A DNA stretch of 63,986 bases, the filler included, from Streblomastix strix (Eukaryota): assembly GCA_008636045.1 (NCBI GenBank). It is 3 parts of 3 records of this genome, joined end to end, with 100 filler letters (N's around TTAATTAATTAA, not from the genome) between each part and the next. Parts side by side here need not be neighbours in the genome. Positions count along the whole stretch, not along the records: positions 21,993 to 43,866 come from SNRW01000346.1; 2 more parts are not named here. The stretch is one strand, 5' to 3'. Shown here one piece after another: positions 21,893 through 53,679 of the stretch. The stretch's first letter is position 1; every line of letters starts with the position of its first letter. The notes beneath the pieces are model-generated. The model saw only the letters and a program-made list of their open reading frames with translations. It was not told where the DNA came from and searched no databases. The translations under genes and the position numbers were made by a program.

Positions 21893-21992
21893 NNNNNNNN
21901 NNNNNNNNNNNNNNNNNNNNNNNNNNNNNNNNNNNNTTAATTAATTAANNNNNNNNNNNNNNNNNNNNNNNNNNNNNNNNNNNNNNNNNNNN
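21893..21992. other. Artificial contig spacer
   Basis: Exactly 100 nt: Ns flanking TTAATTAATTAA, the standard six-frame stop linker. Confidence 0.95.
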
Positions 21993-22004: not shown

Positions 22005-22789
22005 TCATGAATCTAGTATCATTATTGTTGTTCCATCATTGCTGTTTTATACTATTAAGGCTTATCTCGTTGTTAAATTTATATACTATTCCCATACTTT
22101 ATCTTTATCAAATGATATAGAAGATTAATAATAAAATAAGTTAAATTTCTAACGATTGAATCCCCCGAAAAAGTATATTATATCAACATTAGCTTTTATA
22201 CTTGCATCAAGACCAATTATGTCCTATAAACATAGAAAATAAGTGATTCTTTGCTATCTATACTTGTATAGCTTTTTTTATAATGGTAACTATTTTTTTT
22301 AAACATTGTCATTGCATCATCAAATAGAACTAGTGTATGAGGATATTTCATTTTAAAATTCTCTGCTCCAATAGTTGTCAAAATTTCCTGCTTTGAATCT
22401 GATGTGAGTTAATTTATTAGATGTTTCTCTACAACAGTATCATATGCAGCCTTTGCTTCAATTAGATCATTAAGCACACCATCAATCTCACCATAAGTGA
22501 CAATCTTTGTTGGAATAGTTATTAATGTACTCATTTTCTTGTATGTTTAATCATTATTGCTATCAGTAACATATATAAATAGTGTATAACAGTTCTTAAT
22601 CTAACTCAATTTAATTAATTCTTTGAATATATTATATGACTTACCACTTCCTCTCTATCCTATAAGTAAGTTAATAGAATTATACGTAAAGTTAATTTCC
22701 TTGTGAACAATGCTTTAGATCTCATGTTTATTAGTGACTTAACTATCTAGCAATTCATTTACATATTGCGTTAGAGAATGATTTGACAT
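22005..22789 (-). CDS. A32-like (FtsK-HerA) DNA packaging ATPase; one homopolymer frameshift
   Basis: Walker A LLIGQRGSGKS, Walker B HTLVLFDDAM, RITYFLCLQD and IKANVD. One missing base in the T run at ~22293-22300. Confidence 0.88.
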
Positions 22790-22851
22790 TTATTTACAGT
22801 TGAAACTAATGATTGACAAGTAGTTAGTATCTATTTTTTTGCTTAAACTAA

Positions 22852-24029
22852 ATGAGTGAACAAACTTAATAAAGTGGATCTTCATAATCAACTGCAGCAG
22901 ATAAATTAGGATTTCCTTCCCATTCTAAACTAAGAGTTTAAGAACAAGATTACTATGGAAATAAGGGGATAGTACTACCATATGAAACATATCAGAAGAT
23001 AATAGGACCATAATTAACATTAAATTAAGAGTTGAGAGATAATTAAGATTATTAAAGGTTAGAGAATAATCATTAAAGAAAAGAAATGTGCTTCTAGCGA
23101 AATCAAGGTAGTAATCATATGCTCCAATAATCGATTTGATTGGTAGTAATAAAGATATTCAATTCAAGAAAAAGTGATCAAATTAGCCATCATTTGAGGA
23201 ATGGAAGAAGAGTAGAAAAAACCCTAGATAATAGAAATAGGTTGGAGTAGAAGAAGATATCAATGGAGATAAGTTTCCAGAGTTTGTTGTTCGTGATGAT
23301 AGAGGATTTATTCAATCAGCTGATAGACTTAGAATTACAGTTCCAATTAAGCGTCAAAGAGTAACCAAATATTTCACTGAAAACCCAACTAAATAAGACC
23401 GAGCTACTACATATTATAAAGCATGGAAAGAAGAAGATAAGCCAGCTGATGGTTATAGACATTTCATTAAAAAATATCTATCTCCATTCTTGAAAGAGCG
23501 TGGCTATACTGTAGCTTTAGTATATTCAGTAATAGGAGGTAGAATATGGAAAGAGGTTATTGCTCCATGGCTATTATAATATTATGATAAATCATATTAA
23601 GCATAATCATTTATTGAAGGTGATGCTACATCACTAGCTATATATAGGAAATTGAGTAAAACAATAAAATAAGCATATAATTAATATTTCATAACTGGTA
23701 ATACTTAGTAAAGAGATAATTAAATGATGAGACTGATATAAATAGGTTATGCGGCATTTTGGGACAATCAATTAGGTGATATCCTTGATGATACAAATGA
23801 TGATGGAAATGAAATATTTACTATTCCAACAGAATAAGCTATTAAAGAGGCAAAATTGAGAAGAGATGAGAAAAGAGCAAGAGAATAGAGATCATATGAA
23901 TCGGATATGGCAAAAATAAAAGCAAGGAAAAAGCCAACATTTATTGAAGAAAAGACAGTAGAAAGTGCTAGACTAGTACCACATGACTTCTAAAATGATT
24001 TAGATGATTATGTTATTGTGGATCAGTGA
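22852..24029 (+). CDS. Conserved viral hypothetical protein, divergent from the ATPase
   Basis: About 390 codons (TAR=Gln, one likely frameshift) containing EEDINGDKFPEFVVRDDRGFIQSAD. Close copy at 60004-61173(-). Confidence 0.75.
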
Positions 24030-26099: not shown

Positions 26100-27768
26100 T
26101 TATTTACTCATTTTATTCTTCATCGTCATCACCATTTAAATCATATTTATCTTCATTAATACTAATATTATCATCTAACTAATTATCAATTCCAATATCA
26201 TTCATTATACTCAGGATAATATCTTTAATATCAGCAAGTTCTTATTGAGCCAAATTCAAACATACAAATAACTCATTATTTTAATCATTTAATTATTTCA
26301 TCTGTTTTTCTAATTATAGTTCTCTTATTTGATACTAATTTTCTCCTTCTTTATTTGACTATCTTATTACTAATGCTATTATCCAATCTCATTCACTGTT
26401 TTATTCATTTCTTCATTAAATATACTTCTTTCTTTGTCCAATTAAATCTTAGCTTCTTACAACTGTGCTTATTCAATTTTTATGTTTGCTTTAACTTTTG
26501 TTAAAATTTCTCTGTTTAATCTGATTTTTTCTCGATTTGTCATAATCTGAGCTTTATATATCTTAATTATTTCAAAATTTTACTTCATTTGTTCTCTTTC
26601 TTATAAAATTATTAATTGTTTTTATTAAAACTTTATTTTTTGTTCTTCTAATTGAGTTCTCTCAAAGTATAAATGCGTACAAACCCATTCATCAAATCTT
26701 CGTTCTATAACTGCATCTTATTTATCAAACCAAGTAAATGCTATTTTAAAAATATTTTAATAATCCATTGATTAATCTTTAGATAATAAATTATTTTGAT
26801 TTTTTAAAATAATTTTAATATTTGTTTGATTTTTTGTTAATTAGGTATATTCACTTATTTAAAAATTACATTAAGAATATTACATTCATTATGATTTTTA
26901 TATTGTTTTTTATCTCTATTTATCAGAAATAGGAGAATTTGATGTTTTCACTGGAGAATTTAAATTAATTCAATCAATTTGATTTTGAAAGCTTTCCCAT
27001 CTACTGAAGCCCTACTATAGAATTATTTCAAGATTTTTAACAAATTGTTCGAATTATTATTAATATAATCTATTAATTGGATACTAATTTTAAGAATCAA
27101 TTTCCATGGTTAAATATGAGTCCTTTAGTGGACACTATTTTGGAATAATTATAAGATTTACATTTTCTTTCAAAATAAGTTGTAAGTAATTTGAAATGTT
27201 GATTATTTGGTTATATGCTGATATTGAACATATTTATTAAAAATAGCATCAATTTAATTTTTAAAACAATTAATCGCATCAAAAACTTATAATGATTAAA
27301 ACAAATTTAATATTATCATCAAATTAAGGTTATTTGGAAGTTTATGTCAGAGCTTCTCTACAATGAGTTCAGCCGATATTCCAAAAACAAAAACTCCATT
27401 TAGATAGGGTGATGTTGTAAAAGTTCATTATGTTCTCGGAACAGAAGTTGGTATAAACCTAATCGAGCAGATTTTCTCTGCAACTAATTCTATTGGATTA
27501 AAAAGTTTGATTAAAAAGTTACAATTATAATTCTATATTTTACTTCAATTCTTTTTAAAATTAAATTATAAATCTAAAAAAATATTTGATTGAATGAAAT
27601 CTCTTAGCCGAACTAACAATGTTTTTTATAGGGCAACATTATAGTGAGATCACTTCAAAACAAACATAAAAATGAGTCGAGGCAGTAGAGGAGTATGCTG
27701 CGCGCTAATTTATTTCATGAAATCTTATCTTTAATTTCACTTTTCTTTAACTTACCAGAGAGCAGGCG
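26100..27768 (-). pseudogene. Probable host gene with a spliceosomal intron, interrupted by element C
   Basis: Minus-strand GTAAG...AATTAG intron at 27705-27755 (51 nt, AT-rich, GC-richer flanks). Coding-like stretch RLGLYQLLFREHNELLQHHPI downstream. Product and extent unknown. Confidence 0.4.
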
Positions 27769-27827
27769 AGTAGTATATATATGAGAAGTTCGCCCCCTCA
27801 TGCTTTGAAACTCGTTTTGTTCAATGA

Positions 27828-27942
27828 CCCATCAGCAATACCCCATCATCATCTTCATCCATCTTCCTTTTTCACCAATGCCCCATCATTCTCCCAACAG
27901 CAATGCCCCATTATCCTCCTAACAGCAATGCCCCATCACTGT
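27828..27942 (+). repeat. Subterminal tandem motif CAGCAATGCCCCATCA (about 4 copies)
   Basis: CAATACCCCATCA, CAATGCCCCATCA, CAATGCCCCATTA and CAATGCCCCATCA seen directly, 60-170 nt inside the terminus. Confidence 0.75.
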
Positions 27943-28439
27943 TCGCCCCTCGTGTAATGAAAATGCAGTAATGAAAAAACATTAATGTTCCCCTATATAT
28001 ATAAATTAAAAAAATATAAAAAATAAAAAAAAATTAATAAAAAACGTTAAAGGTTTTCAAATGTATTATGTTTGTGGTTCATAATAAGATAATATATAAA
28101 TAAATTTAAATTAATTAATAAATTGAAAGTTTGAAATTACGGGTAGGCAAAAATTAAAAAATTAATGTTAATAAAAATTTATTTCGCGTTAGCGCGAACT
28201 GTTTGAAATTGTGCTTTAAATTTATGTTAATTTAGATAAAAATATATTGATTAAATAAAATTTGCATTAGTAGCATTTAATAACATATCCACCGGTATTT
28301 TTGCCCAATTGTAAAAAACAAAAAATGTCTCGTGCATGCATTAGCTTTTACAACACCCATCTTCTTTTTTTATGATGGGTGGACTCAGTCCTGTTCTTTT
28401 ATGCTGGAGCAAGAACTGTTGGCCCCTCGCTCGTGGAAA

Positions 28440-28550
28440 AAATTAAAACTTACTGTTAAGTTTAACGAATGAAAGGGCGTGAGCGGGGGGAGTCGAACCT
28501 AGACACTCGACTTGATAATAGGGGGACCAGTCCCACTGAGCCATTTGCGC
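28440..28550 (-). ncRNA. Putative Pol III (type 2 promoter) tRNA-like small RNA
   Basis: A-box TGGCTCAGTGG (28543-28533) and B-box GGTTCGACTCC (28499-28489) at tRNA-like spacing; T4 and T6 tracts at 28448-28437. No proper cloverleaf. Confidence 0.55.
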
Positions 28551-28583
28551 GCATTTATTAATATACAATTTAAAACATATATA

Positions 28584-29751
28584 ATGTCCAATAGAAATAA
28601 ACCAATTAACGAAGTAATTGACATTTTAATTTTTAAGCCTGATAAAATAAACTTAAAGGATTTCATTAGAAATACCAATAATTATTTTAATTAATAATTT
28701 ACAATAAATAATTTAGAGCAGAAAATTTAAAATAAAACAATTTCGCAATGGTATAAAATTTATTTAGATAATTATTTAAACTATCACGCTGAAAGAATTA
28801 AATAAAATACCAAGCCAAAATAAGTAAAGGAATAAATTGAGTCAACGATAATATAAAATCCCTTCAGAAACAAAGCAAAAGATAAAACAAATATAGTTCA
28901 AGATATAAAATTGAAATCATTAAAGAAATACCAACGACCATATTATTCGCCTTTGTTAAGTAGCTGGGAAATTGACGTTATTTTCATAATGCATCCAACA
29001 ATAAATAAAATCAAATAGAATTATCTTTTCGCCATAAATATTAATACAAAATATTTAATTGTTTATCCAATCAAAGATAAAACAACTAATGAATTACTCA
29101 GATGTATAAAATAATTAGTAAAAGACCAGCATGTTTCCAATATTCGTTCTGATGGTGAGGCCGCCCTCGGTAGCAATCAAATAAAGGACTATATAAAATA
29201 AAATGGCATCACATATTATTTTACCTCATCCAAATTTATCAACAAAAACCGAATTGTTGATTCTGTTATCCGAACTATAAGAAATGCATTTGAAAACGAT
29301 GACCAACTCATGGCTAATAATAAGCAAATGTAGCAAGTCGTTGATGACTACAATAACTCTAAACATTCGGCGTTCAAGAGTAAATTTACACTTCAGCAAG
29401 TTAATGAATCAGAAGATTTAGAAGGTATATATATCCGTTAGAAAATAAAACAAGCAGCCAACATAAAAGAACTATAAACAAAGGATAAATTATTAGACCT
29501 TCACTAAGGGAATATATTAATGATTCATCTAGATCTTTCAAAAACCCAGCATTACTTTTAAAAGAAACGAAGATAATTTAATGAAATCGCCGTATTTATT
29601 AATTATAGCCATGGAAACGTTATTTGTGAATTATTAAGGCCGTATAAAGATATTAAAACTGTTGAAGTTCCCATTTTTACTATACAAAGAAAGTAACGGA
29701 TTCTATTGATACTTTATAATAGAAATATAAACGAATTTTAAGTTAAATTGA
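28584..29751 (+). CDS. Retroviral-like (rve) integrase; frameshifted
   Basis: SWEIDVIF (D1), YLFAININTKY, NIRSDGE (D2), KNRIVDSVIRTIR (third acidic position is D) and YNNSKHSA. Confidence 0.88.
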
Positions 29752-29781
29752 TTTAATTTTTTATTTTTTATCAGTTAATAA

Positions 29782-30246
29782 ATGGAAGGTAAATAAATTG
29801 AGAAAAAATCACGTAAAAAATATGTAAAAAAAGGGAAGCCATCAATGAATCCAATTGTGGAACCATCAATGGAACCAGTAATGGAACCGATAATGGAACA
29901 ATCAGTGGAGCCATCAGTGGTCCCACCTGTGGGGCCAACGACAGAGCCGCCAATGGAACCGTTAATGGAGGCTCCAATCGGCAGGCCCGCAACACCAAGA
30001 CAAAGTATGCCACGAAAATATTACACTGAAGAAGAGGCTAAAGATATGGCTAGATTACAACGTAAATAATTCAAATAACGTTTGAGAGAAAAATAGAAAG
30101 TATTTAAATCTGACATTTCTGAGCAATAATTATCAGCCCAAAAGTTGTTAAATAAAGTTGCTTTATCAAAGGAGGATTTAATTAAAATCATTGATATAAT
30201 CGAAGGGAAGATAGAGCAGGTAGATGTAGCAGTATAGACTTTTTGA
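29782..30246 (+). CDS. 154-aa protein with PxME repeats and a GRP...RKYYTEEEAK DNA-binding-like motif
   Basis: Intact frame with TAR=Gln extends ORF-track 29845..30069; 12-nt repeat units. Confidence 0.75.
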
Positions 30247-30248
30247 TT

Positions 30249-31049
30249 TCATTTTTTCTTATTTTTGTCGTGTTTCTTTAGTGTGTCTTATGTAGCTATT
30301 GATTGCATTAATTTACTTGTTTTAATATAATTCTTTCGCTCCTTTGACCTATTAATTCTAGACTATTTATCTAGATATTATTTTTCTGCTCTTAATGCTT
30401 GAATTCCTCCATCTTTCATATAGTACGCGGTTTTCATTATCGGATATGGGGTATTAGTAAATTCTTTATTAATTGGTTGATGGCCACAATCAGTTGCACC
30501 ATATTAGTATTATAATTCTTTTATTGTTTATGCATTATCTTTTTATAACATTTTACTTTCAATTTAATTCTCTTTATCTGCTCCCATTTATTATTACAAT
30601 AGTGTTCCTTCTTGTGATTCTTCGGTGAAACTACCTGTCAAAAGATTAAATGGGTCTTACGATTATATTCCTTCTCCATCATTGGGGTCCTCCTTCATTT
30701 TTTCGTTTTCGTTTTATTTTATGCGTTCTTTTATTTATATAGGGTATGATAATCGTCGGCTTGCTAAATCGTGTGAAGGTTCATTTAGTCGTGCATTAAT
30801 ATTATTGGAATATGTTATCTTTTTGTCAGGAGTCCCTTAAAAAGCCATTGCTACCTCTAGCGCTGATTACATCAGCATTTAAGCCATTGGGTCCTCGTAT
30901 TATGTTGTTTTGGGCTTGGGTATGTAGTATATCGTTCTCTTTCCTTTGTTATCTTCTTTTATAAGAGTGTTAAAGTTTTAGTTTGATGGGGCCGATTGTT
31001 ATATATTTCGTTGCGTACTTAGTTTTCCCTTTATTCCTTTTTTAAGCAT
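30249..31049 (-). CDS. Viral hypothetical protein (266 aa)
   Basis: 801-nt ATG-TGA frame, open only with TAR=Gln (MLKKGIRGKLSTQ...). Confidence 0.7.
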
Positions 31050-31217
31050 TTTAGTAAATTTTAAAAATATATTAATGATATTTTAATTATAAATAAATAG
31101 AAACCAATTTTTGTGAAATATTAATTATTATATCTAGAGCTTTATTATTGATGACTTAAATTTATGTAATTAAATATAAGGCTTGAACTTTGTTTTTATA
31201 TATTTATTTTTAAATAA

Positions 31218-31445
31218 ATGATTAAAATTTCAAGCGAGGAATTTATGATATATTGTTCATTCTTAAGTTCTCTTGTTTCTTTAGCCACGAAATTAGACCC
31301 AGAAATTGAACTTCGATTTTTATTGAAGCAATATAATAAGCGTCTGAGGATGGAAGAGCTAAAAGAAGTGGTATAATTAGCCGCGGAAAATAGCTAAAGT
31401 GCTGTTATAAAATTAATGGAATTATTTAATGAAAAAAGCAAATGA
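31218..31445 (+). CDS. Small viral hypothetical protein (75 aa)
   Basis: TAAATG start; MIKISSEEFMIYCSF...NEKSK then TGA. Confidence 0.65.
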
Positions 31446-31468
31446 TTCTTTATTTTTGTTATACATAA

Positions 31469-32930
31469 ATGTCAAACATCGGCATGCAAATTATTAGCTC
31501 TGACTCAGAAGAAGATTTTGTGACGTGGAAGACCACCATACCCTCTGGCTATAATTCATTTCAAGTGAATAGCATTAATAATATACCAATAAATTTAACC
31601 TATTATTTAAATAGTGATTATATAGAAATATAGCACAATATTATTTCTACCCCCTATAGGAAAATACATTATTAGCAGGATAACGGAAATGGTTACTTTT
31701 CATTATAAGTATTAATGGAGTTGCCCCCAATCAGGCTAAATTTAAATACAGCTACAAATAACTGATATGTCGATGACCAAGATAATCAGGGATATAAATA
31801 CGTTTCATAATTGCTTGCTCTTTAAGTTCCTTAGTTTATTAATTTTATTGATGGATAAGAAAAATATTTCAAGTTATAATCAACCACTAATCGAGGCGCT
31901 ATTTGCTTTAATAACCCCCAGAATGAACATACATAAAAATTATCAAATAATAAATTTTCATTAAATACAAATTATGGACACGATATAGTAAGTTCAGCAA
32001 TGAATTATATAAATTTAAGAATTTACGCGTTCCTTTATCATTATTGGATAATGGACTATAGCACAAGCGTAGCATATCGAACAATAGGATTAATCCGATT
32101 ATATTGTCCAACTACAAATAATTTTATAACTTCTGTTGAACCATTATCGCCAAACGCATTATCTGTACGTTATTTATTTGGTAAGCGCATAAATATTACT
32201 TCAGCGGGTGCGATAACAACATCAGATGACCAGCCAATAAATGTTTAATAATAGACCATGCAATAAATAATCAATAATATAAATACTTTCCCAGTGAGAA
32301 TAATATGCTCACTACCAGCACTCACCACTCAAGAATGGACGGATATTTATGCAGCTGTAGGAAGATAGGGCTTTTATGGCTAATTCATCGCGGAAGTTGT
32401 TGGTGAATGGTCAGTAGTTGAACATATTAATTGGTTCGCTAAAAAAAATAATATTGTCACCAAATTAATATGCTTAATTAGCTGAGGCATTGGATTTATA
32501 TGACGGGATAAATGAGAATGGATCAAATTAAATATCAAATCTTTCGTCGTCTATAAAATAGATTGATTTAGAAACATGGTTTTATAAGACTAAATTTCCT
32601 GCTAATAGTTTGATTCCTGACCTGCCAATATTCAGCCCATTCATAGATAATTTTATTGACTATCCACAGATATTAATTATATGCGTAAATAATTAATTGA
32701 AAGGAATAACGATGGAAACAGTCGGAGGTAATCGGTTCAATAATGTATGCTTCAAATAAAACTTGGTTGATGATCCAGTTTTATGGTTTTAAAATATGCT
32801 CTCGCAAGAGTGTTTTATTGTCTAAAATAAATCAGTGATATTTACATTATATGATAACTTTGGCCGTAAGGTGCCAACATAATACGGGGATATGTATAAT
32901 AATCTTTTACTTGAGATATAATTTAAGTGA
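31469..32930 (+). CDS. Candidate minor capsid (penton) protein; frameshifted
   Basis: About 485 codons, beta-rich. The C-terminus VIFTLYDNFGRKVPTQYGDMYNNLLLEIQFK resembles the hxhxDxxG...hxhxh end of Polinton/virophage mCPs (pattern recognition only). Confidence 0.5.
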
Positions 32931-32964
32931 ATCTAATTATTTTTATTTTTCTATCTTTTATAAA

Positions 32965-33279
32965 ATGAACAAAAAAATCGATTATTACCATTAAGCAGCA
33001 ATAGATTATGCGTTCCGTATCAGAAAGATTAAAGCTTATTAAGATTAAATAATTAACCCAGATAAATATACCCAAGAATATATGCCTTTTGGATTCCATA
33101 AATTGACTGAATAACGGAAACCAATTAATGATATTATTGATGAAGCATAAAATTAGATAAAAATATTCAAATAATGGCTATATTAAGATAAAGAAATCAT
33201 AAATGTTTTGCATTAAGCATATCCAGAATTGAAAAATGAATTTGATACCATAAACTAAGAATTTCTATTTGGCAATTGA
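32965..33279 (+). CDS. Small viral hypothetical protein (104 aa)
   Basis: 315-nt frame open with TAR=Gln (MNKKIDYYHQAAIDYAFR...). Confidence 0.65.
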
Positions 33280-33350
33280 TTTATTTTATTTTTATTTTAT
33301 CCTAACTAAATTTATTTTTTATTTTTTATTTTTATTAATTCGTAATAAAT

Positions 33351-36300
33351 ATGTCATACTTAAAGAAGAAGGAAATTTTGTTATTGCTTTAAACAGTTGG
33401 ATAAAATAATGTAAATCGCCGCTTAAGAGTACCCGCACTAAAAAATTAACTAAATCAAATATTTGATTAATTAGAATACCCCAAAAAGGAAGAAACAATT
33501 TAACCCAATTAACGTATTTTACAAATGCAGTACGTCAGCGATAAGTTGCTAAATCTTAGAATTAACAACAGCCGCAGGCGGAGGTCGGATGACCGACCTA
33601 ACAATAACAACAATAACAATAACAACTAATGTAGTAAATTAACCAAGTCAATTATTTCCATTAAAATTAATATGAATACGATTTGCTTGAATATAGACGT
33701 AAACAATAATAAGAATAAGTATAGCAAGAATATGATTAATAGATCCAATAGCATTTGCTTAACGAAACAATTTAATTCACAAGACCCGAGAACTTTAGCT
33801 GGACCAGAAGCAATTTTGTTTTACCCCAAATGTACATTGATATAATATAGAACGAAGAAATAAAGGATAAAATTAATAAGTACAATAATGGTGAAGTTAA
33901 TGAGATTGAAAATGACTGGTCTAACACCTTGCTTTATTTTCCTCCATAATAAAAGGATAAATTTATTGAAGCAGTTGATGAAACATTCAAAGGGTATCAT
34001 TTTGAAAAGGATATTGAAGGTGAAATAAGCAATACATATTATAATTATTTCATTTATTCTTTAGGTGAGATAAATAAATTTATTGATGACGTCTATGAAA
34101 AATAAAACCATAAAGCATTTAAAATTGCCTTTGATTTTGGGGTGATTTATGAGGAGAAGAATAGTGACAAGCTGGGGCACCTATCAGTGTCATACGGTAA
34201 CATTCGACCCAATGAAGCAAAGACATAAAAGCACACCCCCAAATCAATCATTAAAGGGTAAGACATCGAAGAATATAAGGAGTATGTTAAATCAGAAATA
34301 ATAGATATGTAGAACTTTAATTTAGATAACACAAAATAGCGTTTCTTAGCGATTTATTCAATGATGATAAAAAAGTTCAAATTATCACAATTTCACATAG
34401 GCGGCAGCATTAAGAAATTAATTGATTTTCATTTGAAAAGACATAAAAACTGTTTGGGAACGACAAGAAGCAAATATAATATATGCTGGTTTTACGCCTA
34501 TAATTTATTTAAATATCCTGACACCCCAGAGAAAGGAATTAAAGAACATTCACGGGAGCTCATGGCAAAAGAACACATGGCTAAATTTTATGAATTACCA
34601 TATGAAACAGATGATAATGAATTTCAAAAATGGCTAAATGATTTCACAGGTTTTGACATTGAAACAGAAATTGATGAATTCGTTTTAAGGGAGAAAATTA
34701 ATGTAAATATATATAGTTATTCAGTGGAAAGTTAAACATATCATCAGTCAAAAGTGTATAAACATAATGAAGACGTTAATGAAGCCGCCGATGAATCCAA
34801 TGATGAAACAGTTAATGAGCCCGTTGTAGTTCCTGACTTTAATGTAGTAATTGACGAAACCAGCCCCGAAAAGGCCATCCAAAGGCTAAATGATTAAGCC
34901 GCAACCCTTACCCAAGCTTTTTATATCTCGAATAAAGAAACTTTAACAGGATTGAAATTTTGCCCCTTCTGTACATAAAAAGCATCTGACCCTAAAGACA
35001 TTCATTTCGTGGCACAATATGAGAAGCACATTAAGAAATGCGAGATAAATAAAGGTAAAATTGTCAAAGAAATTAAATTGGAAGCTGAACAAAGGTCATT
35101 TTGTCCTCATATAAATTAGAACAAAATATATTAATTCTTGCTAGCAAATAATCGAGAAAATGAATTTTAGCCTACATAATATTATATCACTTATGATTTT
35201 GAAACAGTGGAGAAAATAATTAATAAAGATTTTGGCAAATCAAACAAATAGATTTCATAATTGGTTCCCCTTTCTGTAGCCTCGACAATTAAGAACAAAT
35301 AAGGTATAAAAACAATTTACTATGATTTGAGAAATAGCGATGATTTTATAAATTAATGGCTCAAATAAATATTTATAGAAGCAGAATAAATTAACCATGA
35401 CAATTAATATATAAACGCTGACGTTCCATTTGACGTTGAAGTTCCAATCGTTGGTTTCAATAGCGCAAAGTTTGATTTTGCTTTGATATTTAAAAATCTA
35501 TAATCATCGGACTGGGAAATTAAAAGCTATATTGGTAGTTCTTCACAAGTGAAATAAATTATTGATAAAAATAAGAACTCATAAATTAATCTAAAATTCT
35601 GTGATATAATGGTCTATGTTCAAGCGATGACATTGAAGGATTTTGCATAAAATTTCTCTAGCTAAAAAGATAATAAAAAATGCGTATTTTCAGATGAATA
35701 TATTAACTCTGATAATTTTAATAATGTTCTTGATAATACTGAGCCATTCCCTCAAGAGGCTTTCAATTCAACACTAAAGAACTCATTAGTGAATAACGAC
35801 GAATATAAAAATTATTTAGATGACGCAAAATAATTTAAAAATAGATGAGAATATTTATAGTACTATAATGAACAGGATATAAAAATAATGATAGCACCAA
35901 TAGACAATTTAATATAAATGAATTGCAAATATATAATTGATATGTTTAGTTTTATGTCCATAGCTGCATGTGTAAACGCCATCAAATATGCATTTTCTTT
36001 TTAAGATTTTGATATAAATTCTAATTATCCTCCTTGTATTGATAACTCTTAAAAGTTCATTTTATATCCCAGTTATTGGAAATATAAAGTAGATAGTTAT
36101 AAATTCCAGGACTAAATTAAAAAGATAGACCCAACAAATAACGTACGAGTTGATGATTATGAATATTTTAAGCAATTTTTCGAATCTTCTGTATGTGCCA
36201 TTTGCTGCGATAAATTTACAATGATGAACCGCCCAACACTCGATCGAATCAATAATGATTTACCACATACCAAACATAATGTATAACCCTGCTGCTTATA

Positions 36301-37920
36301 TTGCAATAAATAGTGTTCAAATAATGATAAAAATATTAGTAAATTATTTATTCAACTTCGAAGGTTTTGAATGTTGCACTGTCTCCCTACAAATATAACC
36401 AATATAGACGATTATAAATTTATCCGTGGCGGGATAACTGGAGGTTTATCTAATGTCATGCATAGAGAAAATATAACAAGTAAAGATTATGTAAAAAAAT
36501 TCGTTTATAATGCAGCACATAAAAAGGTTCATGTTCAAACATCAAATAATCTAATGTCTCATATTATGGGTGCTGATTTTAATTCCTTATATCCCAGCGT
36601 CGTGTCATCAGAGCCACATAAATTTATAAAATACACAGGAAATAAAATGTATATAGCTGGCTTCGTCATTGGTAGGACAAGTGATAAACAAAACATAATG
36701 GATATAATTAATAATAAAAATAGATTCACCCCACAGAGTCAATTATTTATAGCTGAATTAAAGGGGCACATCGACGAAAAATATATTAATGATTTTGTTA
36801 ATTTCCCACCTATTTAAGAAACTATACATTTACTACGAATGAGGAAACCATTGGGTCCTACATGTATAATCATATGAAAAATAATGGTATTAAAACAGAC
36901 CGAAAATAAAGAAAATTAACAAATTTATTATCAACGATGGAGGAATTTATGTCTTTCAACTCTTACTATCTATGATTCTTGATTGATGACTGCCATTTTA
37001 TTATTGTTGATGTAAAACAATTAATTTTATATAATAAACATGATGGATTTAATCCGCTCGTCAAGGAATTTATAGGCAAGAGAATATAAGCGAAAATAGA
37101 AGGAAATAAAGGACTAGAATAATTTTGTAAAATAACGATGAACTCCTCATATGGAACCGATGGAATGAACACGGAGAAATATATCGAAATTAAGGTCATG
37201 GATAAGAAGGGAGCATTAAAGGCCCATTTATCAAATACTTTTATGGATGAACAATAATTATCTGATAATGCATACGCGGTATAAATGAACCCCGAAACCT
37301 GCACATGTAAGACACCAATTTAAGAGGCATATTTTGTATTGAATAATGCCAAATTTTGGTATCTTAATTTTAAATATAATTTTATGCATAAAGCTTTTGA
37401 CATGGAAAAAATACACTTCATAGAAGGCGATACTGATTCGGCCTATTGGAACGTTAGTGGGGACGCTAATGCAGGATATTTATAATAATTTAACCATGTG
37501 ATTAAAGATAAATAATTCTATGATGATAATTCAAAATATTTCTTCCCCACTATTGAAGGTGATTTACTCGATGAGAAAAAAATACTAGGATTAGCTATCG
37601 AAAATGAAGGAACCGAAATGATAGCACTAGCGCCTAAAAATTATTATATCAAGGTAGGGGAGAAAGAAAAAATAAAATTAAAGGGGGTCAATTAGAAAAC
37701 GACTAAAATTAGCAATTTAAATATAGTGGATAACATTAATAGTGGAACGATAACGAAGGTGACTAATATGAGGCTAGGGTAAAAGAATTATATTATGTCA
37801 AAAATAGAACCACAAAAGAACAGCATTACTGGGATACACACCAAGGCTATTGTACTAAAAGAATAAAGCTGTTGTCCTTATATTCTTGGTCTTAAAGCTA
37901 GTGATTACGTTATTGATTGA
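33351..37920 (+). CDS. polB: Protein-primed family B DNA polymerase with N-terminal TP/vOTU-like region and HNH insert; a few lesions
   Basis: YNICWF, CPFC..HxxxC, ExoI YYITYDFETVE, ExoII GFNSAKFD, ExoIII YYNEQD, HNH CAIC..TLDRINNDLPHTKHNVQPCCLYCN, IRGGITGG, A ADFNSLYPS, B KITMNSSYG, C EGDTDS and LAPKNY. A few frameshifts and in-frame TGAs (~35846, ~36368). Confidence 0.95.
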
Positions 37921-37977
37921 ATAAACCAGCCCATGCCAAATAGCTCGGGCTCAAAAGTGTGGATATTTTTGTTCAAA

Positions 37978-38848
37978 TCATCGAGCAGCACCAGCCGGTG
38001 GGGACCCCCACTGACTCAAAAATAAATTGTTTTCATTGATATAATATTTTAACTAGGTCATCCAATTCATTTAAGAACTTATCATTATCCGATTTTTGAA
38101 CTTCCATTGTGGAATAACGAATTGATATATTTTTAAAGCTTATCCTAATATTTTTTATTATCTCATGGTTTCCACTAACTGCTACGGGTAAATCATAATA
38201 AATTTTGATAAAGCTTTTATCTTCTTTAAAGTTATTTTTATGCTGTCTATGGAACTTGTATTTTATTGAATCTTCTTTTTCTTCGATTAATTATAAAGCT
38301 AAAATATAATTGTTTTCTTTGTCAATGGGTATAACTCTTGGTTTCAATGATTAAATTTGAATATCTTTATCAGTATTTAATTAATTTAATTCCCTTATAA
38401 TTTACTATATTTTGCTGTTAGCATGTTATTCAATGGCTTCAATAACCTCTGGATTAATTGTTGCTTAAACACGACTATTTACCTAGTCCATTATTTTATG
38501 AACATAAACAGCGTATTTTGGTTCAATCCATGTTGCCACGTAGTTGATTAGGATAGGGCTGATATAATAGCCTTTGTAAGCATTTTCAAATCCTTTATTT
38601 ACATCATACACTAATGGGTATGCCTGTTATTGGGCATGCTCAGAATCATCCGTTTCTGCTTTTAAATAATCTTTCCAATGTTAAGATTCAATTAAATTTC
38701 TAAACCGCCTATTATATTAATCACAAAATTAAGTAGCAATAATGTAATGGTCTTCAGTCTTAATCAATAATTTTAAACCGTTATATGAACCTTCAATTAA
38801 ACGAATATTGTTGTTTGAAATTTTAGCGATAATCCTAACTTGTTCCAT
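37978..38848 (-). CDS. KilA-N domain protein; frameshifted
   Basis: GSYNGLKLLIKTEDHYIIATQFC...KGYYISPILINYVATWIEPKYAVYV matches the KilA-N pattern. The 3' end is approximate. Confidence 0.8.
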
Positions 38849-38944
38849 TTTATAAGCTGATAAAAAAATAAAAAAATAAAGTTGTTTCCAAAATCGTTTT
38901 ATCGGTAGTTGCAATATTACAAGGACTCAATTTTTTATGATTTT

Positions 38945-40022
38945 TCAAAATAGTCCTTGGCTACCACCCGAGACCATAAATTCTATTTCTTAATATTTCA
39001 TAAAGACCGAGCCACTTATTTAATACCATAAATTCATATTTATTTAGTGTGTTATACAATTGCTAAAATTCTTCGTAATAAAAATTTTAAATTGAATTCT
39101 CCTCATACTCCTATTTTAAATCACTCTCGCCTGAATTAACTCCTAAACAAATGACATGCGACAGTATCCTCGCTGTCTTAAACAAATAACTTGGCCGTTA
39201 AGCTATAAAGAATATGGTATTTTTTCTATGGCGAGAATCACTAACCAAATGGATAATGGTCTTGGCTAATGAGCTACTAAAACGTTATATATCAGCATTG
39301 GATCCAATGTCATCGAAGATCATTAATGTATTCAATAATAGAGCATCTTTTAGGATGGGTATTTTTAGTATTTTAATATCCGCGGTTTATTTATCGTCAA
39401 TAACTTTTAACTTCTTTTGAAAGGATACATTTTAAATTAATGCTGGGATTTTGAACCGCAATATTGGACTGGGTTATGAGTATTTATTTATGGTCTCCAT
39501 CACTATAGATTAAAATAGCTCAGTTATTCGTTCAATATATTTGTCTGGTTGCTCGGCCACTTCGTGGCGGTCTGCCGACTCCCTCTTAATCGGATTCGCT
39601 TCTATTATTTTTTCTTTCATTCGCTTAATAAAATCGCTATTGTAATCAAAATTTTATTCCCACAGCTTATAATAAGTATATACTTCTTTAGTGCTATATT
39701 TTACCTCGTCAAACTCTGGCAAAAAAACCATAGCCTCGCTATATGTTATATTCACTATTTATATTCCTTTGCTATTTTAATTTAATGCCATTGTTTCATC
39801 CGCTCCAAAATTAGTGAAATATAATATAAATGGATTAATAATTCTTTTATACATAACGATTAGCTTGTACATTAATGTAGTTTTACCCGAGCCAACAGCC
39901 CCAACGATATAGTGGTTACCGTTGATGAGGAACAATGATATTTTCGTAAGGGGACGCGTTTTGTATTCATTCAGTAAATTCTTGTTTGTAAATTATATAT
40001 TTTGTAAATCTGCTAATAACAT
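38945..40022 (-). CDS. A32-like packaging ATPase (second, divergent type); one frameshift
   Basis: Walker A HYIVGAVGSGKTT, Walker B LMIFDDIG, SRHRKNTIFFIAQ (Arg-His and Gln motif). Confidence 0.88.
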
Positions 40023-40070
40023 TTTAAGAATATTAAATTTTCAACGAAGTTGCATTTTTACAAAGATTAA

Positions 40071-40442
40071 ATGAACATTTTGAATTTGATTATAGGGATG
40101 ATGAACTACATGTTTTATGGCATCAATTTTATTATATCTATTTTATCCTTATCTATCCCTGACAAATTAACTGACACTGTTAATTTAGTTAAATAATTGT
40201 GGGGATATTTGGATATAGTATTGGTGCTATTAAACATAACAATTTATATAATACAATTTTTTTATCATAGAAAAATGGGGAAGAATCAAAATATAATTCA
40301 TTGGAATAAATTAACGGAGTAATAAATTGAGGCACTTTTGAACGAAGCGATTGCAAATAAAGATTTTGAATTAGCTCAGCATTTCCGTTATATATTATAT
40401 TTGAAGATGTTGAATTAGCCCCAAGATAAATAATAAGTTTGA
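40071..40442 (+). CDS. 123-aa membrane protein with two hydrophobic segments and a UVR-like C-terminal motif
   Basis: MFYGINFIISILSLSI and YLDIVLVLLNITIYIIQFFY; LLNEAIANKDFELAQHFR. Confidence 0.65.
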
Positions 40443-40476
40443 TTTTAATATTTTTTATTTTTTTATCTGATATAAA

Positions 40477-40908
40477 ATGACTCTCGCTTCGCTCAACCTT
40501 TCAGTAAATTAATTTGAGAAACTGGAATTTTATTTGAGCCAATACAAAGTAAAGAAAGATGGGCAATTAATAGAGTAAATCAATGACATATCATTTAATG
40601 AACTCCGCTTATGGAATCTGTAATTTTATTAATTAACCAAAGCCAAAAAAAGTGATTATACATATTATAGAAAGTTAAAATAATACGGGAAATATAACGA
40701 AAAATACATTTTCGTTAATGACACAAATAATAATGAATAAAAAATAAACATAAAACAAATCATTCAATCAAATCATAAGAAGAAGGCCATTATGCAAAAC
40801 GAAGTTTCGCTACCGCTTGCGGCTGGAGCAATCAAAGAGCCCATTAACGTGCCTATAAACGAAGCCATTAATGGATACGTTGATGAGGAATAATAATGCG
40901 GGATATGA
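40477..40908 (+). CDS. Viral hypothetical protein (143 aa)
   Basis: 432-nt ATG-TGA frame with TAR=Gln. Confidence 0.55.
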
Positions 40909-40942
40909 TAAATATTATTTTTATATTTTATTTAATATATAA

Positions 40943-41191
40943 ATGGACGAAATTTATTAATTAGCCACAAACATAGGCTAATAATATAACGCAACATATT
41001 ATGAGATATTCAAAATATTCGAGGCATTAATTGAGCCAACTGTTTTAACCGATGAAGAAAAATAAACCGATTAGTAATTCAAAAATCACTATACATTTAT
41101 TGAACCGGTCAGCGATAAAACCGATGAGCTCATAAAATATATCCAATATCTCAATTTTCTTATGTCGTTAAATTAAGTTGATAATAATTGA
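40943..41191 (+). CDS. Viral hypothetical protein (82 aa)
   Basis: 249-nt frame with a TAAATG start. Confidence 0.55.
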
Positions 41192-41597
41192 CTAAGCTAC
41201 TATTTTATACGTCATTTACAAAATCAGCATATATTTATTTCTCTGTTTCATTAGCTTCGGAAATTATATATTTTTTGAATTGCATGGGCTAATTATTCAA
41301 ATCCAATTGTATTTTTATTTAATTGTATTTAAATTTAAAATATTTCTCCTGTTCATTAAACAGTTTATTTTTATATTCTTCTTCATCAACATATTATTTT
41401 ATGCTTTATAATTTATTTTATAAATTTAAAAATTATTTATTTATCCTCTGTAATTCTTTCAAAAGTGGATGGCGTTGCTCATTGCTATCTTTGATAAGTA
41501 TATTTTATAGGGCATCGATGGCTACCCTTATTGTATCCTCAATTTCAAAGTGGCATTTAACCAGTTCATTAAACAATTATTTTAAGGGCTTATCCAT
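41152..41597 (-). CDS. Viral hypothetical coiled-coil protein
   Basis: MDKPLKQLFNELVKCHFEIEDTIRVAIDALQ...; 3' end approximate. Confidence 0.5.
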
Positions 41598-41636
41598 TTT
41601 ATATAAAAATAAAATTTTTGAACCTAGAGAAAACCA

Positions 41637-43565
41637 TCATTAATTTTAGTAGAATGGGTTAAATTACAATGCATGGTCTCTCCAGAATACAGTAGTTCCA
41701 TCATTATAGAATCCGCCATCTGTTCCAAGACTTTTTGCACCCCATAAGATTGTATTACCTTATGAATAATTAACTAATCCGCCAGCAATAACCTAGCCAT
41801 TGAAAGTAAACGTGTTTCCATTAGCTGTTTATAAATTGAGTCTGATATTCTTATACCTTAATTATATGATACACCTTGAGTATCACCAATTGGATTAATT
41901 TATACTGAACCAGTTTGTGTAATTGGAAATAATTAATATATACCTCTTTACCCTGTAGGCAAAGCTGAATGTGTGTCAGTGGTTAATATATCAGTAATAT
42001 TTCCCTAAAATGCGCTTATATCGGTTTAATATATAAATGTATTATAAGTAAAATCATCAATTGAACACTATAATTCTTCATATCTATTTATACCAGTTCC
42101 AGAATATATTATCCATGCGCTATTCAAACCGCAAGATAACGAAGGGATAAACTAATACTACTATTTATCAATTCTTATATCACTAGTCAAATGTTAATTA
42201 AATTATATTTTTCCAAATCCACTTCTAGTATTTATTTTGAATTCTATTGAATTATCAGTTGAAGAATTTAAAGCATTAAACGTACATAATTTTATATACT
42301 AAGACTATTCAATAATTTGATATAATTTGCTTGCTAAAACGGATTTTATAGTATCCCCATTCGCTAGTAATATGTAGTTATTTGTTCCACCTGTTTTAAT
42401 AAATGTAGTCGCGGAAATGTTTCCATCATATGTTAATTATTGAGGATGAACATGGTCATTTCTACAGTAATAATCACTCGTACCATTAACTGCTGCGGCG
42501 GCATTTACCAGTAGCACATTTGCCACAGTTGGATCAACATTAAGGGGGTGTTAGTTCTGAGCACTGGCATATATATTAGATGTGCATGCCGTTCCCGTTC
42601 CTGAATCTTTTAGCGGTACGTCATTACTTAGATTTACATGATGGGTATGGTCAGATCTAGCATAAGTGGCAGCAGTGCCTACTTCACCTGTTTCGGTATC
42701 TGCGGAAGGTAAAGCAGACGAAACTTATAGTGGATGTTAATGGTCCCCTCTAACATAATCATTTTAAATTCCTGCAACACCTGCGCCACTATCAGCCAAT
42801 GGCACCGCATCACTGGCTGGTGATACCTAGTCTGGGACCATATCACCACTATTATACCAATTATCGGAGTACATCCATACGGTCACTGACACCGCACTGA
42901 ATGCAAAATCACCAACAACGGAATTTAGCAAATTTTAAATATCTGTGTTCAATAAATAATATCCCCGAAAATGCTACTATCGCGCAAGCTCTTACTAGAT
43001 GGTTATTATATCATTTTTTACCCCAACAATATCAGCGTCAATGGATCCGATAGTAGATTATAATTAATTTACTTCATTAATTAATTAGTTAATTTAGGCG
43101 ACGAAATCAAAATTTAGAACCTTTAAATTCTTTACCGTTAACAAACCATCGGGGGCAATTTTTAATGCAAAATCTGAAGCTTGACCATCAATGATTTAAT
43201 TATTGGCAGCATAAACTAAAGCGTTATCGTTATCTATAAACAATTAATAATCTTCANNNNNNNNNNCATTCTACTAGTCTTGAAGAATTACAGCCTCAGA
43301 TAAATGAATCATCCTTGGCTAATTTTCAAGCTAGCATAAATTTATTGGGGTACATTGTTTTAGTCGCTTTTGAACCATTATATAATGTAGTAGCATAAAA
43401 TAAATTATCATTATCTATAAACAATTTATAATCTTCATTTTATAGCATTCCACCCGCAGAATTTCCCCCACGTTTCGAATACTGGATATAATAAGCAATA
43501 TCATTAGTGATTAATTACCTAACAGTTCGGATTTGCTATTATGAAAGGCCGTTATTTCTTTGCAT
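41637..43565 (-). CDS. Phage-like tail-fibre / receptor-binding protein (assembly gap at 43257-43266)
   Basis: Coiled coil, FRGYY..GDFA..W module, repeats YVRGDHQHP, YARSDHTHH, YASAQNQHP and YCRNDHVHP, then ATTFIKTGGTNNYILLANG and a beta-rich C-terminus. Confidence 0.75.
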
Positions 43566-43615
43566 TTTATTTCTATAAAAATAAATTATTTTAGTGAAGC
43601 CATTAATTGAAAACG

Positions 43616-43822
43616 TCAGCGTTTATTTACCAATCTATCTACTGCTCCCGCAAGATTATCACCAACACCAAGTGCTGACCCGATGCCCTGATGAATCATT
43701 CCTGCTGGACCCGCTACCGTACATAATACTTTATGAAGAGTTGGAGCTATCCATTATGCAGCATGTTTTACTTCACCTAAAATTTTCGGACCAAAATTTG
43801 CTATTTTGCTGTAAAAACCCAT
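43616..43822 (-). CDS. 68-aa Gly/Ala-rich amphipathic protein (MG start), pVI-like candidate
   Basis: MGFYSKIANFGPKILGEVKHAAQWIAPTLHKVLCTVAGPAGMIHQGIGSALGVGDNLAGAVDRLVNKR; 207-nt frame. Confidence 0.7.
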
Positions 43823-43866
43823 TTACTTTATCATAAAAATAACAAAAATGAATGCCTGCGAGTGAT

Positions 43867-43966
43867 NNNNNNNNNNNNNNNNNNNNNNNNNNNNNNNNNN
43901 NNNNNNNNNNTTAATTAATTAANNNNNNNNNNNNNNNNNNNNNNNNNNNNNNNNNNNNNNNNNNNN
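43867..43966. other. Artificial contig spacer
   Basis: Exactly 100 nt with the TTAATTAATTAA linker. Confidence 0.95.
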
Positions 43967-46900
43967 ATAGTCAATCAAAAACCATAAAATGTAGCTAGTG
44001 AAGCACATAAATTGATTATGTGTTGATAGCAACGATGTTAGGTTTGTAGTAGGTTAGTCAACAGTTAATCCCTATGCCATCATTTTGTTATACATGAACT
44101 CACCAAACTATTCAATTGAATTGTTATATGTTAATTTCCTCCATATCGGTGCTAAATTTATGTGTGAATTATATACATCTCATCAATGTGCCCCTTAATA
44201 CGAACACAAAATAGCTATCCCTTGTCAGTATATCGATCGGAGCTCATAATTATATCTCGAGCTTTCTATTTCGAACTATTAGATGTACATTTGAAATAAC
44301 TAGTTACTCCCCCAGCTTGATATATTCGATTATTTATATAAGGGTTATTTTTGTAGAAGATACCACTAAATACACTTGGATAGAGAAAGTTGAAATCTAA
44401 ATCAAAGATGTGAGTAATTATATGTTAGGTGTCATATAACGTAATTGTTTTAGTAACATGATTATATCTAAGTTTGTTAATATGTGTGATACATATCAAA
44501 TTACATTAATGATACACATTAGACAATCCACCTTACATACATTCCTTTAACATATTATATACAGATTCATTATTAATTGTCATAGGCAGAAGTTCATAGA
44601 TTGCATATTTCATTAATTATAATTATAATTTACTAATTTCATTCTCTCTGTCTGCCTTTACTGTATTACATTTTTTACAAGCTAATTAGCTATTTTATTT
44701 TGTATAATTATTTGCATTATCTATTCTATCTAATGTACGTCTATTTTCCTTAGTAAATTTGTTGTGGCGGAGATGACATGTTTCATTAAATACTTTATCT
44801 CTAATCCAATCAATATCATCCTCATTAACATTATTAATAATATTTTTTATGCGTATTCATCTTGATTGATATATTCTTTAATTTTATTATTTAACCAGTA
44901 TTAAATAACTTTAAATTATTCATAATCATTAACTATATTATAATTTGCTGTGATGTCGTATTTTCCATAACAATACTTATACTAAATTTAACAAGCAATG
45001 TCAACGAATGATATATATCCTAGCACATCAACTTTCTCATCCCATTATATTTGAATTAGATAATTGATGGGGTTTATCATTCAAGTAACATCTCTAATAT
45101 TATAGTGTTTTAGATATGCCCACCTGTCAGCAAAATTTCCCGAGTCAGTGATATATTATTCATAATCATCATGGCTAATGTTTTTATCGTTCAGTTTGTC
45201 ATAAAATTCTTCCTTAACAAATGTTGTTAGAGTTAATATTTATAAATAATTATCATAATTGAATGAACCATATGGAAATATCCTTTTTATTAGCCTTATA
45301 CCTTTTAAACCAAATTCTTCTTCGAATTTCTTTAATGTGATATTTGGTGGAATGAATGATAATATATCAATAAATCTCAAATCAAAATCATAACTAATAT
45401 GTGATATCGTTGTTTATTTAGCTTATGTTGTTGAACCCATGTAGGAGTAATTTAGCTATTATTTTTAGTTAAGTATTTAATCAAGAAATTCATATCAAAT
45501 TACTTGGAATTAAACCCAATTACTGATATTTGGGGTTTATATGGCTTATAGTTTTTATCTTCAATTGTAATATCAGGTATATTTGATTAATTAGCTTAAT
45601 TAACTTTAATAGCAACTTCAAACAATTAGTTTATCTCTTTTTAGATAAAATCAAATCAATCACGCAAAGCAAAATCTAAATTACTAATAGTATCAGTAAT
45701 TGTAGCGGCTGATGCCACTGATAATGGTTCAAGTTAGGCATGCAAATTATCAATATCATTAATAATCTTCTCAATAGTCTCAAAATCAAATGTAATATAG
45801 TTTAATGAAAGCAAAAATTAATCTGCTTATAGTGATGCAATTAGTGTCTATTGTAATTTATTATTTGATACATGTGGATAATATGGCTTTGGTTAATAAT
45901 CTAATTTAACTTATTTAGCTGTCTCTGGACCCTAACAATATTTCAAACCTCTTACCAAAACACGTTAATAATTCTAGTTTTTTAGTTTTAAATATTTTCT
46001 AACAATTGCGGGGACATGTTTTTCTATTATTAAATTTATCAATATTGGTAATATACATATCATGAACTTCATCAACAAATGACAATGGAACTAATAATAC
46101 ATTAACAGTTAGATAGTCCTTGTCAATAATATACTCTTCAAATTTGTTAAATTATTCAACATCACTACAATTTTTTTATTTTTCACCTAATCAAATGTGC
46201 ATGTTATTACATTTAGTTTGAATACTTATTAATATTTTTCGACATCTGTTACTTAACTGAAACCTTTATATTGTTCGTATAGTTGTTTATTAGCCTTATT
46301 TAATCTGCTGCCAGGGTTAGTATCATGGAATTAGAGGAACAATTTAATGACATCGTATATTCTACTCTTTGTCTCAATTATATCAGGGTGTAAGGCAAAT
46401 GATGCTGTAATAAACCAACATATATTATACTCACAATCAGCATCTCTAGTAATTCCTTCCTTATTGAAGTGTTGGCATATTTATTGTAATTTTGTGCCTA
46501 GTGACAGCATATAAATAACAAGCAAAAGCGAAAATAACGCAATCTTTAATGTTGATGAGTCCTCATGTGCATAATCTTAATATTATGCCAATAATTCAAT
46601 GGCATGCACTTTAAATTCCTCTTTACTGGTGATATCACGAATAACTATTAAACCTGAATGGTTTTTATAACTATTATCAGTATTTGGTCTTGTGAAAACA
46701 TAATTATATTCATCAGTAGTCTGCAAATGCTTATAAACTTATTACTTTTTCTACCAAATAGATCCAAAATCAATATATATTTTAAATGATTTTGCTTTCA
46801 CTAGCTATTTCTCATAGAAATGATTATAATAGTATTAGACATATGGCACTTTATTATATATACCTTTTGATACTATTAATGTATCAGGCAAGCCTTCAAT

Positions 46901-47230
46901 ATTAACCTCCTTTCTATCCAAATATCTCTAATGAGTTTGGGCTAGAGTTGCATACACTTATAAATTTAATGATTCCGATTTTTAAGTATTAAACTCATTA
47001 TATAATCCTCTATCGTTTCCATAGTACGTTTTAATGAAGTTCTTTGTTCTCTAATCAAATTCTTTAGCCCCTATTTCTACTAATCACAATAATTTCGGTA
47101 TAGCATTCAGCACTACTGACTATCTTATTTTGATTTATTTTTTCTCAATTGTTTTATAGATTCTTTTCATTTTTGACAAATATATTCGATAGTTCTAATG
47201 CAAGTACGTAGTTTTTAATTATCAAATCAT
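43967..47230 (-). pseudogene. polB: pPolB of a third lineage, degraded, C-terminus cut by the contig end
   Basis: YNICWFITAS (~46420), YITFDFETIEK (~45785), IGFNSK (~45510), YLKHYNIRDV (~45100), TLDRIDN..ACKKCN (~44700) and LDFNFLYPS (~44385). Confidence 0.88.
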
Positions 47231-53493: not shown

Positions 53494-53544
53494 TTAGAAT
53501 TGAATATAAATTAGTAAAGTTTTTAGATGTTTTGAGTTTTTTAG

Positions 53545-53665: not shown

Positions 53666-53679
53666 TTGTGCATGTGCGT

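Follow-up and report, generated by a model that had tools for sequence, protein, structure and literature searches.

Is the gene-dense stretch at positions 27769 to 43866 of a DNA window from Streblomastix strix (GenBank assembly GCA_008636045.1) a virus-type element written in its host's own genetic code, and if so, in what state is it? The window, by which we mean the whole stretch of DNA analyzed (63,986 nucleotides), consists of three contigs with spacers at 21893-21992 and 43867-43966, and the element examined (16,098 bases) lies on SNRW01000346.1, where a 10-N scaffold gap occupies 43257-43266. An original prediction, made from the sequence, had described it as a near-intact, recently active Polinton-like virus. 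We consider it very probable that the locus is one copy, cut short and broken by mutations, of a Polinton-type element that occurs in many copies and likely belongs to S. strix; its genes are in a code in which TAA and TAG (TAR) are read as Gln.

Gene packing, genetic code, and host

Frames were read with translation table 6 (TAA/TAG = Gln, TGA stop). Under this table 13,552 of the 16,098 bases fall in the 15 gene units counted, a tight packing, and every gene end checked was TGA (12 of 12); under the standard code just six open reading frames (ORFs) of at least 70 aa overlap the region from 26 to 46 kb, the longest being 148 aa. The gene units contain 184 TAA and 44 TAG codons (228 TAR) versus 99 CAA or CAG (CAR) in 4,529 codons, and 30 TGG versus 4 in-frame TGA. 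TAA and TAG read as Gln, with TGA as the sole stop, is also what characterizes the code-matched endogenous viral elements (EVEs) of S. strix. These figures bear out the prediction that the packed genes open only when TAR is read as Gln, and they support the expectation that standard-code annotation would miss the element. We also masked the Gln codons while aligning the element's DNA polymerase B, a protein-primed enzyme (pPolB), to five related, mutually non-independent standard-code pPolBs. The residue opposite was Gln at 12% of the 139 TAR positions and at 17% of the 65 CAR positions, as compared with 2.4% elsewhere; in this alignment Gln is the most enriched residue opposite TAR, not the commonest.

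Three protein searches yielded 2, 13, and 15 sequences, each of which bears the name Streblomastix strix; the last two, for the penton candidate and the 68-aa ORF described below, gave 27 matches with the query itself set aside. Five of six library hits looked up bear this name as well. The naming supports the predicted placement in a metamonad host, whose TAR = Gln code the virus-type element uses. In run X1, a termite gut metagenome that is possibly the window's own source and hence not independent, 6,319 contigs align to the region at a level of at least 85%, and only 702 at a level of at least 99%. Their summed depth is 45 to 63 in the left flank and reaches 14,800 inside the element. Stretches of sibling proteins are 51 to 89% identical, the closest 78 to 89%.

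On the first contig, positions 10955-20350 hold a 3,132-codon frame that is open under table 6 and has internal repeats about 1 kb apart. It is likely a host gene, encoding a surface protein, and contains 150 TAR versus 31 CAR codons.

Replication, integration, and packaging genes

A Pfam search covered 19 table-6 frames, 18 of them from the element. It matched the integrase to rve (E = 1.7e-5, under the curated cut-off), the polymerase to DNA_pol_B_2 (E = 8.8e-6, also under the curated cut-off), and a third protein to KilA-N (E = 6.7e-17). A pPolB scan of 27 of 64 parts yielded at least 14 standard-code metagenomic Polinton-like loci (L001 to L014), and the integrase is 28 to 34% identical to the integrases of three of these (L001, L008, and L011). 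By these matches the integrase and the polymerase belong with the rve integrases and pPolBs of Polintons/Mavericks, and the rve integrase and KilA-N protein that had been predicted are confirmed. In the integrases of the window (28800-29765) and of the same three loci, an Asp stands at the place where rve integrases usually carry the catalytic Glu.

The pPolB was predicted to have all of its catalytic motifs. Exo I to III and Pol A to C are indeed all present in the translation, but the gene is broken and the motifs lie in separate open pieces. An insert in the polymerase (36170-36310) is endonuclease VII/HNH-like (PHROGs phrog_1035, E = 7e-10), and its HNH motif was matched in 7 of the 14 related loci (L001, L002, L003, L005, L006, L012, and L013); an HNH insert is called unique to oomycete and nematode pPolB2 in the portion covered of Jeong et al. 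(10.1101/2023.08.22.554363). In a pPolB tree of 13 rows, which left out L007, L013, and L014 as partial or broken and included no reference Polinton set, the element fell in no starred clade, and its nearest rows were L008 and L001.

The ATPase has Walker A, Walker B, Arg, and Gln columns in common with the Pox_A32-positive ATPases of L004 and L012 (pairwise E = 0.003 against a Pox_A32-positive ATPase). The shared motif columns, rather than a direct profile match, place it with the A32-like packaging ATPases of Polintons/Mavericks and uphold the prediction of such a protein. Sequence searches of the PDB returned nothing for the ATPase or for the C-terminal part of pPolB. No adenain-type protease was recognized by Pfam among the 18 frames of the element, which is truncated at the contig end.

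Likely capsid module and a candidate gene beyond the contig end

A gene of about 490 aa upstream of pPolB is a likely candidate for the minor capsid (penton) protein, as judged from its sequence relatives. It aligns over its full length with S. strix proteins and is 18 to 27% identical to P0075, a 703-aa standard-code protein for which the Atlas ranks the Sputnik minor-capsid V18/19 cluster fourth (score 0.87, a sub-threshold value to be taken as a lead only). P0075 is encoded on a 14,030-nt JGI/IMG contig and was the sole full-length distant penton homolog inspected among 52 matches. Searches of Pfam, PHROGs, and PDB sequences, including one with a penton profile against the PDB, returned nothing for the candidate. 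AlphaFold models of two penton homologs were of low confidence (predicted local distance difference test [pLDDT] 30.5 and 34.4) and gave no fold, and Foldseek with the second of these (pLDDT 34.4) returned only noise. The minor capsid candidate of the original prediction stands as a likely penton, in a gene broken by a TGA and a frameshift. Pepsin-like clusters that the Atlas offered for another protein, P0003 (0.76), were rejected, their score being at the level of shuffled sequences.

The predicted fibre also stands as likely, on the strength of its repeat structure and of its siblings, to which it is 51 to 78% identical and two of which UniRef labels 'Tail fiber protein'; the gene itself is frameshifted and split by the 10-N gap. 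The 68-aa protein encoded next to it has a hydrophobic moment of 0.50 and presumably resembles adenovirus protein VI, and on these two grounds we infer that it may be membrane-active. A JGI scan for its gene gave 0 matches. Separately, IMG/VR scans gave no true relative; one locus, L015, was set aside as a phage contig with a chance motif match.

As predicted, neither an adenain-type protease nor a major capsid protein (MCP) was recognized in the visible part (27769-43866). Position 43866 is the contig end, and no MCP, right terminal inverted repeat (TIR), or second copy of a target site duplication (TSD) precedes it. The prediction also held that both may lie beyond 43866. For the MCP this is plausible from sibling copies; for the protease no evidence was found, and no direct search was aimed at it. 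Since the sibling gene models fuse neighboring ORFs, the order of genes can be read from them. Ahead of the 68-aa ORF, P0023 and P0027 have a conserved gene read from its wrong strand, hence a divergent neighbor, and in P0014, P0057, and P0011 a member of the same gene family lies on the downstream side of the penton; in this window the neighbor would start just beyond 43866. In L004, L006, and L013 an ORF of about 100 aa with an amphipathic N terminus lies divergently beside an MCP like those of cluster 40, the Metamonada cluster of the S. strix EVEs in Bellas 2023 (PMC10120064). This same divergent position suggests, by analogy, that the hidden gene next to the 68-aa ORF encodes an MCP. The candidate is seen only as an antisense trace in sibling gene models; none of the proteins examined contains its sense strand.

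When a degenerate profile of the neighbor gene was compared with the MCPs of cluster-40 type in the window, in L004, and in L011, it scored 21 to 27, the level of shuffled sequences. As a positive control the window's own MCP, treated by the same method, scored 71 and 88 against L004 and L011, with shuffles at 29 or less. The neighbor gene, as far as such profiles tell, is therefore not cluster-40-like over its approximately 200 N-terminal residues, and it may represent a second, uncatalogued MCP type. Its motifs were not found in the portion searched of the Bellas 2023 supplements, which does not show that they are absent there.

A tblastn search of the rest of the window found counterparts of the element's pPolB, integrase, and KilA, and none of its ATPase, penton candidate, fibre, or 68-aa ORF. 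Because its capsid module appears to differ from that of the window's Trichomonas-type (cluster 40) elements, the element is likely a second lineage in the same host. We further propose, tentatively and with somewhat less than even confidence, that this is a high-copy S. strix lineage missed by MCP surveys, with a protease-less module, an unrecognized MCP, a penton of about 490 aa with P0075 as a distant relative, an insert-bearing ATPase, a fibre, and a separate amphipathic entry peptide; its polymerase, integrase, and KilA would be common to it and the Trichomonas-type lineage, and its genes would use the TAR = Gln code. In the searchable open literature on Streblomastix and on polinton amphipathic proteins, a second capsid lineage of S. 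strix was not found described (subscription papers, bioRxiv supplements, and the S. strix rows of Table S5 lay outside this scope).

Lesions and state of this copy

The pPolB gene is interrupted by TGA at 35846, 36368, and 36973. Its reading frame also shifts at about 36812, a point at which X1 contigs with a depth of 1,789/2,705 have one extra base. A frameshift near 33482 and a TGA at 33590 are probable further lesions, which would probably cut off the N terminus. The penton candidate has one TGA and one frameshift (Table 1). A frameshift in the integrase replaces its last approximately 25 residues, and the tail of the L001 integrase matches the other frame. The fibre gene has a frameshift, shown by sibling P0016, and its start is interrupted by the scaffold gap between 33-mer copies; X1 contigs skip the duplication and gap. 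Altogether there are at least eight firm lesions in four genes (pPolB, the penton candidate, the integrase, and the fibre).

Judging from its reading frames, no full-length polymerase or penton can come from this copy, which is likely a fossil. 'Near-intact' does not hold for a copy with these lesions in a contig that ends at 43866, and 'recently active' lacks support for this copy, given the lesions and the 78 to 89% identity of even the closest sibling stretches.

Alternative explanations

Several observations weigh against our reading. The rve and DNA_pol_B_2 scores are both under the Pfam cut-offs, the ATPase has no direct Pox_A32 match of its own in Pfam, and the penton call draws on a sequence pattern and a sub-threshold Atlas lead, with poor AlphaFold models. 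Lys stands opposite 19% of TAR positions versus a 9% background, more often than Gln, so the masked alignment alone does not fix the residue. None of six window ORFs tested is present letter for letter in the protein collection, and an MCP, a right TIR, and a TSD pair are not visible in the sequence ending at 43866. Two further points concern the lesions. In the portion covered of Bellas 2023 (PMC10120064), polishing removed stops from an EVE, so that some such stops are assembly artefacts; and X1 contigs matching at 100% have zero depth in the bins with 36368 and 36973 and none in 35800-35849, a result that does not decide whether the lesions are real, as exact-match contigs drop rare variants.

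These last two points favor the view that the locus is intact or nearly so and recently active, its lesions being artefacts or a chimera from short-read assembly of similar copies, and so do the highly multi-copy nature of the family among X1 contigs and the duplicated 33-mer around the scaffold gap that those contigs skip. We nonetheless regard this as unlikely. Three X1 contigs of 330 to 389 nt match flank and element at a depth of 12 to 19 with no other letters (one is gapped), which is what a distinct single copy should show; related X1 contigs depart from the sequence at about 1,900 places, at many of these in nearly all contigs; the lesions are spread across four genes and include substitutions; and neighboring elements in the window are broken too. 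It is scarcely credible that the element reads all three stops as sense, TGA included, and that its 'stops' are no lesions. A conserved Trp does face two of the four in-frame TGAs, but the other two face Ala and Arg/Lys, so that TGA does not stand for one recoded residue; moreover, TGG far outnumbers in-frame TGA, TGA ends all the genes checked, and the frameshifts would be left unexplained. TGA recoding was rejected on the facing residues and the gene ends. A capsid-less self-synthesizing transposon, in which neither the 490-aa gene nor the gene beyond the contig end encodes a capsid protein, would fit the missing fold of the penton homologs, the empty Pfam, PHROGs, and PDB searches, and the lack of a protease in the visible part. 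We think this very improbable: the element retains an ATPase of the packaging type and a gene resembling a fibre, the cluster named by the Atlas lead is one of virophage minor capsid proteins, and in L004, L006, and L013 an MCP homolog has a comparable small amphipathic ORF as its divergent neighbor.

Comparison with known elements

The broken Polinton-type element described here is closest in setting to the S. strix cluster-40 EVEs of Bellas 2023, in the portion covered of which these EVEs are stated to use the host's TAA/TAG = Gln table and to account for 820 MCP hits (Table S4) in one cluster (PMC10120064). Both share the TAR = Gln code, the occurrence in many fragmented copies, and likely the host, and the predicted novelty of code-matched elements in this host is accordingly not supported. 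Bellas 2023 counts MCP genes, with no S. strix gene map in the portion covered, and the S. strix MCP listed there matches a gene on another contig of the window and nothing linked to this element. The cluster-40 lineage has an ATPase and a penton that do not resemble the element's ATPase and penton candidate. A cluster-40 MCP is not in the visible part, and the siblings' neighbor gene is not cluster-40-like; one could still lie further right. The headline, viral insertions in the host's code, is already published; only the capsid module, unlike the published one, may be new.

Hosts of the Trichomonas vaginalis type use the standard code. By their description in the portions covered of two preprints (10.1101/2023.08.22.554363 and 10.1101/2024.03.23.586382), the Mavericks/Polintons of T. 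vaginalis resemble the element in having pPolB, an rve integrase, and KilA-N, in their metamonad host, and in massive expansion. KilA appears restricted to parabasalid polintons in what was covered of the egovirus preprint (10.1101/2024.03.23.586382), whereas the KilA-N gene of the element sits in an oxymonad. The 2026 framework (10.64898/2026.06.19.733378) leaves Metamonada elements ungrouped, their capsid modules being too divergent, and does not name Streblomastix in the portion covered.

The C-terminal part of pPolB in L001 to L014 is 35 to 49% identical to the element's. Unlike the element, these loci showed no TAR codon in frame across the 11 stretches of pPolB that were counted. Their MCPs are cluster-40-like, except that L012 has instead a different large gene along with a protease-like ORF, and no locus matches the element's ATPase, penton candidate, or fibre. 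L012 (16,935 nt, 22% GC) is a standard-code Polinton-like locus with pPolB, a KilA-like gene, and a Pox_A32 ATPase; its protease-like ORF has 145 aa (motif only), and its large gene, of 650 aa, may encode another divergent MCP. Animal group 1 Maverick-Polintons (Polintoviricetes), which have an AGT-type end, resemble the element in pPolB, integrase, ATPase, probable penton, and this end, which in the element is a candidate one; the element differs from them in that no adenain-type protease was recognized in its visible 16 kb.

From the known biology of the family, the intact ancestor would have had a linear genome copied by the protein-primed polymerase, inserted by the rve integrase, and packaged by the A32-like ATPase into a particle of MCP, long penton, and fibre; replication by pPolB, insertion by integrase, and packaging by ATPase are established for Polintons (10.1101/2023.08.22.554363, portion covered). 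The 68-aa amphipathic protein might serve as a membrane-active or capsid-lining partner. Host ribosomes and tRNAs would translate the genes, long residence could let CAR drift to TAR, and the TAR = Gln code would confine the lineage to hosts with the same code. Being broken, this copy does not provide a clean genome. Should the second capsid module prove real, the metamonad viruses left unclassified by the 2026 framework would gain a divergent MCP/penton family, a single recoded host would harbor two capsid lineages with a common replication module, and the figure of 820 copies reported as the viral load of S. strix would be an undercount.

Gene map and left end

The features are listed in Table 1. 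Nine ORFans had no convincing family in Pfam or PHROGs, in agreement with the roughly nine predicted. The predicted AGTAGT end is present as a motif at 27769 and is weak as evidence of an end, with 30 copies in the window versus 18 expected. It precedes a non-coding stretch with 25-nt repeats, where X1 depth begins rising (summed contig depth of 45 at 27079-27657, then 164, then 788 across the left-end region), and it is plausible but unproven as the left end of the element.

Table 1. Features of the element and of the contig 3 element
Feature	Positions	Strand	Basis or remark
AGTAGT, candidate left terminus (weak)	27769..27774	+	Sequence; X1 depth rise
Four 25-nt repeats, non-coding left end (putative TIR region)	27833..27947	+	Sequence repeats
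Integrase of rve type with the D-D-D triad of related loci; frameshift ~29680	28584..29801	+	Pfam rve, related loci
ORFan, 154 aa, Pro/Glu/Met repeat and basic helix	29782..30246	+	
ORFan, 266 aa	30249..31049	-	
ORFan, 75 aa; precedes penton candidate in siblings P0002 and P0014	31218..31445	+	
Likely minor capsid (penton) gene, ~490 aa; TGA 31763, frameshift ~32441	31469..32930	+	Homolog alignments
ORFan, 104 aa	32965..33279	+	
Protein-primed DNA polymerase B with endonuclease VII/HNH-like insert	33351..37920	+	Pfam, phrog_1035
KilA-N protein, 271 aa, open	38033..38848	-	Pfam
A32-like packaging ATPase, ~75-residue insert	38793..40022	-	Motif alignment; core open, C terminus may read through
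ORFan, 123 aa, hydrophobic N-terminal half	40071..40442	+	
ORFan, 143 aa	40477..40908	+	
ORFan, 82 aa	40943..41191	+	
ORFan, 148 aa, helical	41151..41597	-	
Likely fibre gene; frameshift near 41830, 10-N gap 43257-43266 between two 33-mer copies	41637..43565	-	Siblings
68-aa protein, amphipathic N-terminal helix	43616..43822	-	Siblings
Contig spacer N44-TTAATTAATTAA-N44, element cut here	43867..43966	.	
Contig 3 cluster-40-like MCP, broken	~49905-51600	+	Likeness by eye to S. strix MCP of Bellas 2023, Table S3 (portion covered)
Contig 3 KilA	52325-53077		After MCP and a small ORF
Contig 3 ATPase, short	~53984-54463	-	
Contig 3 pPolB	~55787-59739	+	

Other elements in the window

Contig 3 holds a second, broken Polinton of the Trichomonas-type lineage (49905-59739). 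Further broken pPolB copies lie at 144-7850, with an integrase at 6864-7848, and at 43970-47083, and there are at least four pPolB remnants within the 64 kb. Contigs 1 and 3 have long direct repeats in common (77 to 86%). Fragments of the other, Trichomonas-type lineage, with a short ATPase and a 283-aa ORF, occur at 22022-24026 and 60005-61635; they are 70 to 89% alike and inverted, and one of them lies on the element's own contig, about 4 kb to its left.

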